From NCBI GenBank assembly GCA_051313645.2, contig JBNRSN020000017.1:41168001-41232000 (forward strand): 64,000 bases of DNA, read 5' to 3'. Positions within the stretch are counted from its first letter, which is position 1, and each line of letters opens with the position of its first letter. The stretch is from Centroscyllium fabricii (taxonomy: Eukaryota). Below the pieces are notes generated by a model, which saw only the letters and a list, made by a program, of their open reading frames with translations, made no database searches and was not told where the DNA came from. A program made the position numbers and the translations under genes. Shown piece after piece: positions 3,698-62,087 of this stretch.

Positions 3698-5184
3698 TAA
3701 CTTATTTTCATTGCGAACCTAATTGGGAAACTGACCATAACCTAAGTGTTCTCATAACTTCAGATCCCTTACTTATCTAATATTATTAACTAGAACCAGA
3801 TCTGGCACTGCATCATTTTTTGTTGGCCATGCAACATTAAGGAAACAATTTTAGGTGCCATTCTAAGAACCCCTCCTCATTTTGATCACAAATGTTTGTC
3901 TATTCCCAGCTAACGCTGTAAACATCTTGGCTACAAATCACATCCTCAATTTCTTTCCCACCATTTGGCGGGCTATAATGTACTCCTAATATGGTAACAT
4001 GCTCCTTTATTATTTCTTAATGCGACCCAGACAGAGCCCAGCTAAGCATTGCCATTGATACAAATATTTTCTTTCAAATGTCTGCAAACAGTTCTGTAAT
4101 GAACCAGGCCTTTTCTTCCTTTGGTATCTCTCCTGTTTATAGCCAGGAACAAATTGGGCCCTGTTTTCCTGTGCTCCAGAGGAGCTGCACACTCACGAAG
4201 GGGGGTCAGAAATGCCCCATGGGTGTGCAGCACGGGGGATGCCCACGAACGGTAATTTCCTGTGCTGATGGGCAAGGCCCGTCAGCTTCCAACGCAGGAA
4301 GACCTTGCACTGACGATTTCCTGTCAGAACGGGTGATTTTTGGAGAGTGATTCCGTGTGCAACTGGCTCACAAGCTGCACACAGAAAAACCAGTAGTAAG
4401 AGGGAGAAGATTTAGTTACTGAAGCAGGTAAGTTAATTTTTTAACTTTAATTTAAATTTTTTACAGTTTTTGGGAGTAGTGTGGCCAGATCGGTAGCGTT
4501 AAATTTTTAATTTAAAGTTTTTTAAAAAAAATTACAAATCCGATTTTAAGTTAATTTACCTGTTTCAAATCGCTAATTTTTAAAGTTAAATTTCTGAAAT
4601 TTTTAACTCTCTAGCTATTAAAAAATCTAAGAGGACAAAATGGGAGACTTACCTTCCGTTTCTTCCTCTGAGAAGCTGCTGTGCCCGCGCTGCTCCCCCG
4701 CCGAGTCTGTGAGTGCAGCTCCGCACTTCCCTGCTCTCACAAAGGTCCGACTCGGGATCTGTTTATTTAAATTAGGGATCTGGGGGCGTTTTTAATTTAA
4801 ATTTCGGATCTGTGGGCGGGGCATACACTGCGCACCTAGCGTGGCTGGACTGCCACGCAGCGCAGGAACGGGGAGGAAATTGACGGTGAAACTTCTGTGC
4901 GATGTTGGCAGTGTTGTCCGTGAGCGCGCTAAATGAGCGCGCGTTCACGAGCGCGTTCACATTTTCGTGAACGCTGAACGAGCGCGCTCTTTCCCAGCAG
5001 CCTGAGCGAAAACGTGAGCGTCGCTCAGTTTGCAGGGAGTGAGCGGCGCTCTTGCAGCGCTCTTGCGGTATGTGACGCATGCGCAGATCGTCTCCCAGCG
5101 ACACGAGTCGCTGCTGCCTTCCATGCGGGTCGGATCGGCGTCTCATGAAGCCATCGACGGTGAGTGTGCCGGACCTGCTGGCTG

Positions 5185-5835
5185 CTCTCTCCTGTCTGCT
5201 CTGCGGGGCAAAGCAAAGCTCTCTCCTGTCTGCTCTGCGGGGCAAAGCTCTCTCCTGTCTGCTCTGCGGGGCAAAGCTCTCTCCTGTCTGCTCTGCGGGG
5301 CAAAGCAAAACTCTCTCCTGTCTGCTCTGCGGGGCAAAGCAAAGCTCTCTCCTGTCTGCTCTGCGGGGCAAAGCAAAACTCTCTCCTGTCTGCTCTGCGG
5401 GGCAAAGCTCTCTCCTGTCTGCTCTGCGGGGCAAAGCTCTCTCCTGTCTGCTCTGTGGGGCAAAGCAAAACTCTCTCCTGTCTGCTCTGCGGGGCAAAGC
5501 AAAGCTCTCTCCTGTCTGCTCTGCGGGGCAAAGCAAAGCTCTCTCCTGTCTGCTCTGCGGGGCAAAGCAAAGCTCTCTCCTGTCTGCGGGGCAAAGCAAA
5601 GCTCTCTCCTGTCTGCTCTGCGGGGCAAAGCTCTCTCCTGTCTGCTGTGCGGGGCAAAGCAAAGCTCTCTCCTGTCTGCTCTGCGGGGCAAAGCAAAGCT
5701 CTCTCCTGTCTGCTGTGCGGGGCAAAGCAAAGCTCTCTCCTGTCTGCTCTGCGGGGCAAAGCAAAGCTCTCTCCTGTCTGCTCTGCGGGGCAAAGCAAAG
5801 CTCTCTCCTGTCTGCGGGGCAAAGCAAAACTCTCT
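5185..5835. repeat. Minisatellite, 29/34-bp unit ctctctcctgtctgctctgcggggcaaag(caaag)
   Basis: About 20 tandem units inside the hAT element; stop-free, which explains the long overlapping ORFs. Confidence 0.95.
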
Positions 5836-5849
5836 CTCTCTCTCTCATC

Positions 5850-7851: not shown

Positions 7852-8253
7852 GGGCGGCACGGTGGCATAGTGGTTAGCATTGTTGCCTCACAGCACTGGA
7901 GACCCGGGTTCGAATCCGGCCTCGGGTACTATCTGTGTGGAGTTTGCACATTCTCCCCGTGTCTGCGTGGGTTTCCTCCGGGTGCTCCGGTTTCCTCCCA
8001 CAGTCCAAAGATGTGCGGGTTAGGTTGATTGGCCATGATAAATTGGCCCTTAGTGTTAGGGGGATTGAATATGTGGGGTTACGGGGATAGGGTGGGATAT
8101 CTGTCAGTGCAGCCTCGATAGGGATCGAGGGATATGGGGAGAGGGCAGGGGTGGGATACTGGGTTTGGATGATCAGCCATGATCTCGTTGAATGGCGGAG
8201 CAGGCTCGAAGGGCCGAATGGCCTACTCCTGCTCCTAGTTTCTATGTTTCTAT
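7852..8253 (+). mobile_element. Full-length HE1-type V-SINE
   Basis: tRNA-like head (tggcatagtgg, ggttcgaatcc), V domain gtggagtttgcacattctccccgtg...tccggtttcctcccacagtccaaaga, CR1-derived tail. Confidence 0.95.
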
Positions 8254-10298
8254 ATCAGTATAAAATTGCAGGAATGTTACAACACAAACTGCAAAGTGTT
8301 CACATAAATTAACAGGCAGTTTGACGAGTGACAAAATGCCTTTGCCTGACATGTGAAGCATTTACAGTTAATATTTTTTGGATTTTTACTCAAGATGTTT
8401 CCCTTGGTTACAACCTGACTGACAAGCAGCATGACCAGACACCTCTCCCCCATGAACCAGAGTCTGCCTTCACCTGCCCAACATCTCGGTGCATGCCGTA
8501 AGGCCCAGGACTTGAACAGAGAACCCTTGTCACTGTTCTCCAGCTTCCGGGATGTTGCCACATGATCTTCTGCACTTCACTCGGCAGAAGAATAAAAAGT
8601 GCAGCTTAAGCTATAATCTACAAGACAGGTTTGTTGAACATTAAGCAGATACAGCGCCCAACATAACAGTGTGTTTACAGTAAGTACGAATTTTACTATT
8701 CTTCTTCAAACATCTAAAACAACAGATGCTTTCTTGCACTAATCTTCATCATAAAAGTGCCCCTTGAGCTGCAGTTTCATTACTTCATGCGTGGCTATCT
8801 GTTACCACACATCCTCTGATTAACCCCATGCATCTAATGACCTCAAACTAACTCTCAAATTTCTTTGAAAATATCTCGGAACAAAGGGACATTAAAAACT
8901 GCATCTCCTGTAGTTACATCCGCCATTCCCAGGATTGCAGCTACAAAGGATATTTCCTGATCACAGTCATCTCTAGCACCCTTTGAAGCTCAAGACCTGT
9001 AATTTTAGGACGTTTACACTTATCCAGACAGCTATCAGGGACACTGCCGAACAAGATGACATTAATGGTTCTGCATTTAACCTGCATTAGCATATTAAAC
9101 TATCTTTTGTTCCGCACAAAGAAGGTACGGATGCATATTAATATCTTTGGCATGCCAATATAATGCATATTGTCCAGAACTTGATGAATCAGCACTTCAT
9201 TTTAATCCTATGAGCACTGTAATCAGCAAGACAGCATCCAATATGTAATCCATCATGAAAAAATGTCTAATTTTTGTCACTGTGCAGCACTTAGCCACAC
9301 CTTTGCACCACCGTTTTCATCTTTCTAGTTAAGCTATTTGACAATTTCCTTCGAACAATTCAATAAGAATTTTAACAAAGTGCAAACGATATCAATAATT
9401 ACCAAACAAAATCAAAATCGGTAATAACTTCAGAACAGCCAGAATTTAGATCTGCTCAGAAAGCACAGGTATGGTCAGAACTAGACAGTGATAGAGGTCA
9501 AACCTAAGGCCCTAAGATTCGCAATCCTCAATCGACACCTCAGGTTATGTGGTCCCAAATGATGCTGATCCATTTCCCCCACCCGCCGTTATCGAGTGGA
9601 CAGTACATTCTACGCGGTCATAAATTGTGCATGCTTTGGATTCAATTTCCTATCAGCTGAGCGATCCGTTAAAAGTGTTCCATACATTTTTAATTGAATA
9701 TATAAATGATTTTAACATATGTGCATTTCTGGGGCGGGGGGATGATATTTATGTCTAAATAGCCAATCTTGCTCCATCACATCTGGTGTGTGGCTCAAGC
9801 AGCAGCAGGTTTGTGATGTATGGGGGTGAAAATATGTTGAAAATGTTTCCAAACGAGCAGCTTCCAAGCCAATCGGGTATTCAGATACAGCAGATAAAGC
9901 CACATGCTGAAAGGGTTAATGTGCGGCTGTTGTATTAAAGCTGTCGCCTTTAATTAGGGTTGTTAAAAGTTTAACTAGTTCCACTAAAGTAAATGAGAGT
10001 CTGTAAATTCCAACTGCAGATGCCCAACTCCCACATGGAGTCACCTTTCCCCCTCAGAAAGTCACCCCCATTGTGACAGATGGACATGAAACATCTGTGC
10101 TGCTATGTTCAATGCACAGTGTGAACAATTCCACCTCCAAGCAACATAGGACATACAAGGCACCAGTTCCACTGTAGAACTGTAGTTGGTGCTCCATTAA
10201 CTGTCATTTCTAAACATAATTTGCAGGTATGTTACAAACAAGTTGTAGATGTGATGAAGATTATACTTGTGGGTGGGATAGCTGCTTAACCTTTTGTG

Positions 10299-10510
10299 AT
10301 GTGGAGGTGCCGGTGTTGGACTGGGGTGGACAAATGTAAGAAGTCACACAACACCAGGTTATAGTCCAACAGCTTTATTTGAAATCACAAGCTTTCGGAG
10401 CGCTGCTCCTTCCTCAGGTGAAGTGAAGAGATGCATATAGGCACAGCATATATAGTCAGAAAACAATGCCAGATGATTACAGCTAATCTTTCCAACTGCC
10501 CTTTATCACA
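10299..10510 (-). mobile_element. Short Penelope-type terminal-repeat element carrying a hammerhead motif
   Basis: Flanked by near-duplicated accttttgtg / acctttttgtg; contains the hammerhead at 10385-10421. Penelope assignment is by analogy with the 49007 copy. Confidence 0.65.
10385..10421 (-). ncRNA. Minimal type-I hammerhead ribozyme motif (intact core)
   Basis: Minus strand: UCAC-CUGAGGA-A-GGAGC-AGC-GCUCC-GAA-AGCU-U-GUGA. Stem I 4 bp, stem II 5 bp, palindromic AGCU helix III, predicted cut after CUU. Confidence 0.8.
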
Positions 10511-11950
10511 CCTTTTTGTGGAAGACTGACCCGTACCGATTTGTTCAAAGCATTCTGACGGGGTTGAGAATATACATTGGGACATTTGAACAAGTGGGTT
10601 AATTTGTAAACGGATGTGTAATAGGGCACAATAGGGATGAGAACTAAACTTCTCTTGAGTTTATTATGCTTTGGAAACCCTACTATTCAATCCCCGCATT
10701 TTATGTTTGAAAATGCAGCCCAGTCCCCGATCTGTGTTGGTTTAAACTTTCAACGCTGAGCTGCTCATTGTTAAAGGATCTAAATCAGGTGGCAGGGCTG
10801 GCTGTTGGAGAGTAATGTGAATTTGGATGGCCTGCTGATTGATGTAAAAGCCGATTCCACCCATCTCACGCTTCCAATGTGGAAGTTTGGCAAAACAGCA
10901 GGATTTCATTTGTTTTCTTTAATGATTGGAATGTACCTTTCTTTCTGTTAGGGGGAAAACAACGTAGTCTCAATCAATCAGTGATAAAATCCTTCATTCA
11001 GCACTTTTCATTACTGCTGTGTTGAATCCATTTTTACTACAACTTTGGCCCTAGTTTGTCCAATCCAACATTATTGATGTAATTTATGAGAGAGAGAGAG
11101 ATGGCCACAGTTGCATTCAGCAACGCACATCTAAGACTCCATTACAACAGGTCCAATTGTAGGGGGGGAAGTAGGTGGGAATGCATCAAATCATCAACAT
11201 CACTAAATAATTCAAAAGCTATCAAAACTATCAGAAATTTAGAATAAACTGTACATTCAAGTTGAATATATTCCGCTGCCCCCAGATCACACATATAGAA
11301 AGTCACATATCAGGCTTGCTGGCAAATCGTAACAAAATGGTTACATTCTCATACAGGGACTCAACCATCATTCTACAGTGACAAAGAGAATAATGACCTA
11401 TAATTAATGTGTTTGTCATTTTAAAGTTTTTTATTCCCACGAGAGAGCACTACAGCTTTAAGAGTGAAGAGGAACTGCATGATACACAAGTGTGCAGCGC
11501 TCTGCCAAGAGCATGCTCCAGCACTCACTGGCAGCCACTAACACACCAGAGAACAATGACTTCTGTATTCAAACAGGGAGAGTGCGAGAGAGAACAAGTC
11601 TGTATCAAAAAAAATAATTTTTAATAGTAACAGCTGTCCCTGGAGCCGTGACCCTCACAACGTTGGAACACTGAAGCTCTTTCAAGGAGTGACAAAATAA
11701 GCACCGATGCAGCTGTGCAAGGGAACTCATTTACAGTTCAGGCAGATTAACGCACATGTCCTGAATAGGAGACAAGAATTTTGATTTACGGAAGCCAAAG
11801 ATTAACTCTTAGGGGTCAAAATAATTCTAACACAGATGAGTAACGACACACAAGTGTGAAGACATCTCTGGGCACATCCAGGCCATAAATAGGACTTTTC
11901 CAGTTAAATTATCAGTGGGATTTTGAGTACTGGAGAGGCATTTCAATACC

Positions 11951-12177
11951 TGTATGTGTGTGAGTATATGTGTGAGTGTGTATGTATGTATGTATATATA
12001 TAAAATATATATATGTATATGTGTGTGATTATATATATGCGTGTGAGTATATATATGTGTGTGTATGTGTGTGATTATATATATATATATGCGTGTGAGT
12101 ATATATATGTGTGTGTATGTGTGTGATTATATATATATATGTGTGTGTGAGTATATATATATATATACACACACACA
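11951..12177. repeat. Compound (TA)n/(TG)n microsatellite
   Basis: Direct inspection; a similar tract lies at 12705-12768. Confidence 0.95.
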
Positions 12178-12704
12178 CAGGTTGTGCACCGGTAATCCGT
12201 TACCCGAAACGCCGGCAACTTCAGTGGTCCAGTATAAATCGCCCCGACTGCCCTGCGCATGCGCAAAATGGCAGCCGCGATCGAGGCTTCGGCGAATGAT
12301 GTGCGCATGCGCCGCCGAACGGCGAGCGCATGCGCAGATCATTCAAAACGGTTGCTGGATGTTTTGAATGATGTGCGCATGCGACGCCGGATGGCGAGCG
12401 CATGCGCAGATCATTCAAAATGGTCGCCGGACAAGCCGGGCCTTCCGTGGCGTCAGGGCGCGGCGGCTCGCGCCGCGTTTTGAATGTGCGAGTCCCGAGC
12501 GCCCGCCATGGTGAAGCGCACGGTTCCCTGGAGCAGCCTGCAGGCCGTCATCAGGAGGCACAAACCGCAGCTGAGACTCAGCAAGGACGTTCGGCGGCCA
12601 TTTCCAATGTTGCATGCGCACTGACCGACTTCATTCTACCGATATTTTCACTTTCCCGGCACGGGCATGGTCCCACCTGTGCCGGATTACCGGTGCTCAA
12701 CCTG
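12178..12704. mobile_element. Tc1/pogo (Tigger-like) MITE with internal palindromic repeats
   Basis: TIR caggttg(t/a)gcaccggtaatccg; right end followed by TA; same TIR as the 30291/32840/36341 family but a different interior. Confidence 0.85.
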
Positions 12705-13524
12705 TATATATATATATATATATATGTGTAAATATATATATATATGTGTGTGTATGTGTGTGTGTGTGCATAAAACAATAATATTCTGCACATTTCTCCA
12801 ATTCTATTTCATAATAATATCCACCATTAGAAAACCAGATAGAAGGTGGAACTGGGTAGTACAGTGGCAAAGAAAATTATTTTACTGGCGTAACACAACA
12901 TAAAACACGGGGATTTTGAAAACGGACAAAAATTCAATGTTCAGCAGGTTAATCCTACATTTAGTGATGGTTCTTAACAGGCACACTGCTGCAGCATAGT
13001 CCTCGGACCCAAGAATTCTGATGGAGGGAACATGCTACAACACAGCACAAAATGGGACGAGAGGCTAAAAACAAGCTGTTATGATTTTTCTGTATGATTT
13101 ACATGTGACCTCTTAACAAGCCAACGTGGTTACATCTCATTTCATTGTAACAGAATTCTGAGTAAGATCAATGTGAAAGTCTAACGTTGCAATTCCCAGT
13201 ACAATGTGAGCAATGTCTGGGTCCAAAAACAGAACGCGTAGATCACGCTGCTTGTTCAATAGATCCAAGCTGCAACAGCAATTATTGTGTTTTTGATGTT
13301 GAGGCTGATCAATTTTTATCTTGATCTTGCATTGCGGATTTCGAAAACAACAACTACAAAATAACTATTCCGTTCACTGCACTGCAACAGTTTGTTTTCA
13401 ACTCATGCGATGAGAGATTTGATTGTGATACAAGATCCATACGACAACTGAATCATGTTCACATCATACTTGTTGGCAATATACGTACTTTTTCCACTTA
13501 GTGATCATATAATAGATATACAAT

Positions 13525-61916: not shown

Positions 61917-62087
61917 CTTCGTGGGAGTGGGAAAACCAGATCTGTGACGTCGCCGAGTGGGGGCTTCGGAAGGCGGGCTCGGAGGGGGAAGACGTAGGTC
62001 CCGCAGGATGAGCAGGTGCTGACCCCAAGCTGCTGGCTAGGAAACTTCCCATGAATGTGGCTGATGAGTTTCCCATCAGTGCGTTGC
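61917..62087 (-). CDS. BAHCC1: Internal coding exon (exon 2-like) of BAH domain and coiled-coil containing 1
   Basis: Translates (G)[56 protein letters not shown](G). This closely matches recalled human BAHCC1 '[57 protein letters not shown]' and fits paralog TNRC18 less well. Acceptor ctaat...ttttcttttctttggacgcatcAG (AG 62089-62088); donor GAAG|GTAAGA (GT 61916-61915); 171 nt, phase 1 at both ends. Confidence 0.9.

Follow-up and report, generated by a model that had tools for sequence, protein, structure and literature searches.

A minimal hammerhead motif in a BAHCC1 intron of Centroscyllium fabricii is the truncated tail of a Penelope-like element and most likely an inert passenger

Minimal hammerhead ribozymes of Penelope-like elements (PLEs) are a class of motif already published in 2014 (PMC4209133). 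It was proposed there that the tandem precursor RNA of the element is cleaved by dimers of the motif; in the in vitro work described, the monomer showed no cleavage and dimer and trimer constructs had low activity. In the account of PMC8557442, Neptune and Nematis elements have a CX2-5CxxC motif in the linker between reverse transcriptase (RT) and endonuclease (EN), and Penelope/Poseidon elements are without it. Both of these papers, as far as their accounts extend, leave open whether minimal hammerheads cut host RNA in vivo. Hammerheads within introns of RECK, CTCL and DTNB are reported to be conserved across amniotes (PMC6155905). Non-LTR retrozymes are described as tandem arrays tied to PLE pLTRs, one chondrichthyan being included, and more than 40% of the Xenopus copies overlap introns, where they are depleted compared with intergenic DNA (10.64898/2026.07.22.740005).

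We have analysed a 64,000-nucleotide stretch of DNA from the cartilaginous fish Centroscyllium fabricii (the window), in which a minimal type-I hammerhead motif occupies 10385..10421 on the minus strand. It is a real, intact copy of the dimer-type self-cutting motif from the end of PLEs. From 5' to 3' it consists of the 5' arm of the 4-bp stem I, UCAC (10421–10418), the catalytic box CUGAGGA (10417–10411), an extra A (10410), a 5-bp stem II (GGAGC at 10409–10405 and GCUCC at 10401–10397, joined by the 3-nt loop AGC), GAA (10396–10394), the palindrome AGCU (10393–10390), U17 (10389) and the 3' arm of stem I, GUGA (10388–10385). Hammerhead numbering puts the predicted cut between 10389 and 10388, directly 3' of the CUU triplet; CUU obeys the NUH rule, the fastest triplets being given as GUC and GUA (PMC3138052). 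The minus-strand reading in the preliminary description, with boxes intact and stems I and II paired, was exact.

The motif has what defines a minimal hammerhead: the CUGANGA and GAAA boxes, U16.1 and H17, helices I (4–5 bp) and II, an extra nucleotide between 9 and 10.1, a G10.1–C11.1 pair, and a palindromic 15.2–16.2 region (AGCU) with no stable monomeric helix III. With the motifs described in PMC4209133 it shares the type-I topology, the 4-bp helix I, the extra nucleotide between A9 and 10.1, the G10.1–C11.1 pair and the palindromic helix III region, and the family resembles them in that solo copies from truncated PLEs predominate and close inverted pairs occur. It differs in having a helix II of 5 bp, against 7–8 bp in the Schistosoma families, and in the 4-nt AGCU as its palindrome. 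Measured against the commonest letters of the copies, the window copy deviates only at N7 and at one flank position, and to judge by its sequence it is catalytically complete; in the isolated 37-mer, helices I and II are predicted at 0.65–1.0. A chance origin was rejected, the motif pattern giving one match in the window at up to 3 mismatches and none in 100 dinucleotide shuffles, and a general minimal-hammerhead descriptor matching only this motif there and nothing in 200 Markov-simulated windows. The folding energy is unremarkable (z = −0.71). An Rfam scan of 8000–13000 (E ≤ 5) gave no hammerhead family, only microsatellite-driven miRNA matches and weak snoRNA and lncRNA matches.

The motif lies within a 217-bp fragment at 10297..10513 (minus strand). 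Other genomic copies align to 10297–10513 with 94–98% identity and, since they match that far and no further, the insert in the window can be put at 217 bp. Its identity to the hammerhead-bearing 3' ends of loci with RT is 88–97%, and 91–97% for copies such as L141, L144 and L147; from this match we regard it as the 5'-truncated pLTR tail of a Penelope-like retroelement. Longer copies extend upstream into a frame with RT and a GIY-YIG-type endonuclease, which bears out the earlier view of the motif as a Penelope-type minimal hammerhead with a palindromic helix III. Pfam RVT_1 (PF00078) matches three frames, with E-values of 7e-10 (L150), 2e-6 (L147) and 2e-6, one of them (L150) above the curated cut-off. 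The L147 ORF holds the RT match and a VVCLI...YIGET motif in one frame; Pfam gave no GIY-YIG match in the element frames, a C-terminal 352-aa piece included, and it is by the YIGET-containing motif that the endonuclease is recognised. The RT–EN linker, CHSNLCKTC, fits the CX2-5CxxC motif. By its sequence the parent is thus an EN+ PLE with RT and C-terminal GIY-YIG, of the Neptune/Nematis type according to the linker.

A sense hammerhead match is found downstream of RT in 16 of the 20 RT-bearing loci, and in 6 of the 20 an antisense hammerhead lies upstream of RT, an arrangement characteristic of PLEs, whose 5' pLTR is inverted. The placing of a GIY-YIG-type endonuclease C-terminal to RT, the CX4CxxC linker, the internal cysteines, the 5' truncation and the inverted 5' pLTR are all shared with the Neptune and Nematis elements described in PMC8557442. 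They differ in that no direct tandem 5' pLTR was found here in the 20 RT-bearing loci (1.5 kb upstream covered), and the clade assignment is a reading of the linker, not a phylogeny. Same-strand hammerhead pairs 3–5 kb apart (L031, L032 and L033) were considered as full-length PLEs and rejected, as no pair consists of pLTRs flanking a PLE ORF: an LTR-retrotransposon-like ORF set lies between the hammerheads in L032 and a LINE-like ORF in L033, and L031 has no match to a PLE protein.

Some further features of the elements were seen. In L015, L024, L030 and other loci, a hammerhead-like remnant (CUGACG-U, hairpin, GA) directly follows the PLE stop codon; in longer copies it precedes the intact motif by ~370 nt. 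It is without A9 and GAAA and is possibly a decayed older ribozyme. Subfamilies in L034 (2300–2800), L046 and L048 have the last ~125 bp (ribozyme and tail) in common and unrelated upstream 3' UTRs, which suggests that a constant ribozyme module has had the sequence ahead of it swapped. Near BAHCC1 there are also pieces of another PLE endonuclease, a distantly related one (L045:2025–2516, minus, and L049:369–782, plus; 33–36% identity to P0030).

The family is very large. A genome-wide motif search, put forward in the preliminary description as a check, found 52,225 exact matches to the 28-nt core pattern in 7.2 Gb, or one per 138 kb, and none to the reversed control. For comparison, PMC4209133 gives about 4,000 minimal hammerheads in coelacanth and 9,000 in Xenopus, numbers obtained by different counting methods. 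We found no description of this particular PLE hammerhead family in the open-access literature, and chondrichthyan terms are absent from two of the three supplementary files of PMC4209133. Many of the intact cores (G000:C1) form inverted pairs 6–900 bp apart, as in PLE inverted junctions, and such pairs would form long hairpins in pre-mRNA. A tandem retrozyme array was rejected for the window, which has a single copy of the motif and no tandem repeat at the locus. The window copy resembles the non-LTR retrozymes in that its unit derives from a PLE pLTR and carries a type-I hammerhead; unlike them it is a solo fragment, where an active call as described needs two consecutive hammerhead units (10.64898/2026.07.22.740005).

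The host gene was identified from a coding exon with AG/GT splice sites at 61917..62087 (minus strand), which has 79% identity to proteins named BAHCC1 by NCBI/UniRef (E about 1e-14) and lies upstream of the intron that carries the motif. In a tblastn search with nine of these homologues, which covered the window and 120 kb of adjoining sequence, the next coding exon was in locus L039 at about 1929–1802, ~8 kb past the low end of the window, and further exons in L040–L044 were, every one, on the minus strand. No second BAHCC1 match was found within the window by the same nine homologues, and Pfam found nothing in the BAHCC1 exon. The host intron is therefore bounded by flanking exons that are all minus, and the earlier placement of the motif in an intron, on the sense strand of BAHCC1, holds: the intron spans ~70 kb, and 51.5 kb of it precede the motif. 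A search reaching 40 kb upstream did not find exon 1, and one reaching 80 kb downstream did not find the C-terminal exons. Elsewhere in the window, 5184–5836 is a GC-rich minisatellite with a period of ~34 bp and 20 copies.

With uniform placement assumed, the probability of at least one copy in a 70-kb intron is 0.40 and that of a sense copy 0.22; given the 52,225 exact cores, a sense copy in the BAHCC1 intron is thus expected ~22% of the time. The family has 12 matches in a 184-kb region around the window; relative to BAHCC1, 5 of them are sense and 7 antisense, and both boxes are kept in 4 of the 5 sense copies, the window copy included. The closest intact sense copies that could act as partners lie ~72 kb away on the upstream side and ~81 kb away on the downstream side. 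The upstream one may be inside BAHCC1, but only if exon 1 is farther out; the downstream one is probably within the gene, because the C-terminal exons had not been reached. The other sense copy in the host intron is without CUGA, and an antisense copy ~17 kb downstream, also in the host intron, is 92% identical over 131 bp.

The age of the insertion can be judged from relatives. Contigs of organism D (one sample, two runs) join 10289 to 10512, skipping 222 bases, and so present an empty site in flanks about 95% identical to the window (35 of 790 and 27 of 590 positions differ). The filled site has an imperfect 9–10 bp target-site duplication on the minus strand, with its 5' copy at 10511..10520, partly overlapping the element end, and its 3' copy at 10290..10298; the empty site of organism D keeps one copy. 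This joint has the signature of a pre-insertion allele, and a precise deletion in organism D would be the less likely explanation. The insertion is most likely recent, since a relative ~95% identical carries the empty site. Flank contigs from organism C (two samples in two runs) enter the element on either side, and the contigs listed include no empty-site joint. A 22-nt insertion in organism D at about 9763 of the window is similar to the stretch of the PLE that holds the stop codon. The window copy resembles the amniote RECK, CTCL and DTNB hammerheads in being a type-I hammerhead within a host intron; however, those described in PMC6155905 are conserved across vertebrate classes, whereas the window copy is absent from the orthologous site of a close relative and is without a monomeric helix III.

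To follow decay, copies were anchored on sequence outside the ribozyme, which gave 9,227 indel-free anchored matches. The sample was 94 of the 100 copies listed from these, indel-free and with exact anchors; every one lies within the first 88 Mb of a single contig. We counted departures from the commonest letter of each column, excluding four flank columns in which variants are common. Non-CpG core positions departed in 16 of 846 cases (p = 0.47 against the flanks), non-CpG stem positions in 40 of 1692 (p = 0.91) and flanks in 39 of 1598 (93 of 1974 with the four variable columns kept). At CpG sites, G-to-A changes were about as frequent at the catalytic G8 (5/49) and G12 (7/80) as at non-catalytic positions (9/81; p = 0.81). 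Forty of the 94 copies are fully intact and 26 have a broken core. In the preliminary description, a lack of preferential conservation of core and stems among other copies was to count against its proposal, and at the level of inserted copies we find none. By this measure inserted copies decay neutrally, with no selection after insertion; the test is family-wide, and selection at a single locus is beyond its reach.

The picture among the source elements is of another kind. At the N7–G8 CpG, C-to-T and G-to-A changes number 34 to 5 (p = 2e-6), the other two CpGs being unskewed (13:9 and 13:7), and N7 is G in 10 of the 94 copies. Together these indicate that N7 varied freely among source elements and that G8 did not. 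Stem II is kept through G–U pairs in subfamilies. A second minimal-hammerhead family, with 1,906 exact cores, has stem II AGGUC/GACCU, the palindrome ACGU and stem I AGUU/AACU, so that stems I and II differ yet pair around an identical core. One copy of this second family is at L044:3310–3350 (plus; G000:C678 about 41,111,316), antisense to BAHCC1. Selection on the motif is, from these comparisons, visible only among source elements. Because the motif is conserved among source elements and across families, it is probably functional in the replicating element's own RNA.

Folding was predicted with a nearest-neighbour model, outside which lie tertiary contacts, proteins and co-transcriptional folding. 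The probability of helix I is 0.11 with ±10 nt of flank and about 0 with ±30 and ±60 nt. In the MFE structures CUCUUCA (10424..10430, minus strand) is predicted to pair with the UGAGGAAG core, competing with helix I. Among intact natural copies at 10 nt of flank, helix I has a probability of 0.17 where N7 is G (n = 6) and 0.94 where it is C (n = 19), the lower value being consistent with pairing of the upstream CUCUUCA to the core. For two strands, the double-hammerhead dimer is predicted at −19.1 kcal/mol and a pair of separate monomers at −20.0 kcal/mol; the most stable two-strand fold, at −28.9 kcal/mol, is non-catalytic. Helix I is thus predicted to misfold in its native context, and the predicted energies do not favour the dimer.

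We conclude with considerable confidence that a 217-bp truncated PLE tail sits in a BAHCC1 intron and that the minimal hammerhead it carries is most likely an inert passenger. In the source element, dimers of two copies joined through the AGCU palindrome would likely help to cut the tandem precursor RNA, as proposed in PMC4209133. Reverse transcription that stopped early would have left the truncated fragment with its short target-site duplication, and from its orientation the fragment should be transcribed as intron RNA whenever BAHCC1 is. With no helix III of its own, no nearby partner and a predicted misfold, it would make little or no cut in the pre-mRNA before splicing, and a host function of the window copy is unlikely. 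The suggestion that BAHCC1 pre-mRNA is a likely cleavage target finds no support, the copy being statistically expected and absent at the orthologous site of the relative. Nor is there support for cutting through a second copy: the closest intact sense partner is about 72 kb away, and the dimers described in PMC4209133 cleave only weakly. Against the passenger reading, more than 52,000 intact copies amount to a non-negligible nuclear pool of potential partners.

That pool is one reason to weigh low-level incidental cutting, in which occasional pairing in trans or in long-range cis would nick the intron and lower the mRNA slightly or leave it unaffected, with no selected role. The core and palindrome are intact, there are 52,225 exact cores in the genome and at least two further intact sense copies downstream, probably in the same gene, and dimers do cleave weakly in vitro (PMC4209133). 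However, the helices are of only 4 bp, the dimer is unfavoured even at standard state, misfolding is predicted in context and the partners are 72–81 kb off. The 5 sense and 7 antisense copies in 184 kb show no obvious avoidance, numbers too small for a test. We consider such cutting improbable, though it fares best among the alternatives. A genome-wide network, in which the pooled intronic RNA supplies enough partners sharing the palindromic helix III for sense intronic copies to be cut in trans or long-range cis, and which so shapes where elements persist, finds no positive support and is more doubtful still. The intronic depletion of retrozymes does speak for genic copies carrying some cost, but it concerns retrozymes and not strand.

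An effect on the host could also come from the element without ribozyme cleavage. An AATAAA hexamer, a putative poly(A) signal just 3' of the ribozyme and sense to BAHCC1 (10374..10379, minus strand), is followed by GU-rich sequence, which might allow intronic polyadenylation, and the antisense copy ~17 kb downstream in the host intron (92% over 131 bp) might form a duplex. That antisense copy, however, has its own adjacent inverted partner, and we hold either effect to be very unlikely. Domestication as a regulatory ribozyme of BAHCC1, like the amniote RECK, CTCL and DTNB hammerheads, has the sense orientation, the intact core and a precedent (PMC6155905) on its side, but the window copy is without a helix III for monomer activity and cannot be told apart from other young copies, and the empty orthologous site largely refutes domestication, leaving it next to no credence.

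As an inert passenger, the single copy in BAHCC1 matters little, being one more of a class described in 2014. The size of the family, on the other hand, offers a clean test of host-RNA cutting in vivo, from the strand bias of intact against broken cores in introns. If sense copies did cut pre-mRNA in trans, the cutting would amount to a new kind of repeat-mediated RNA processing.
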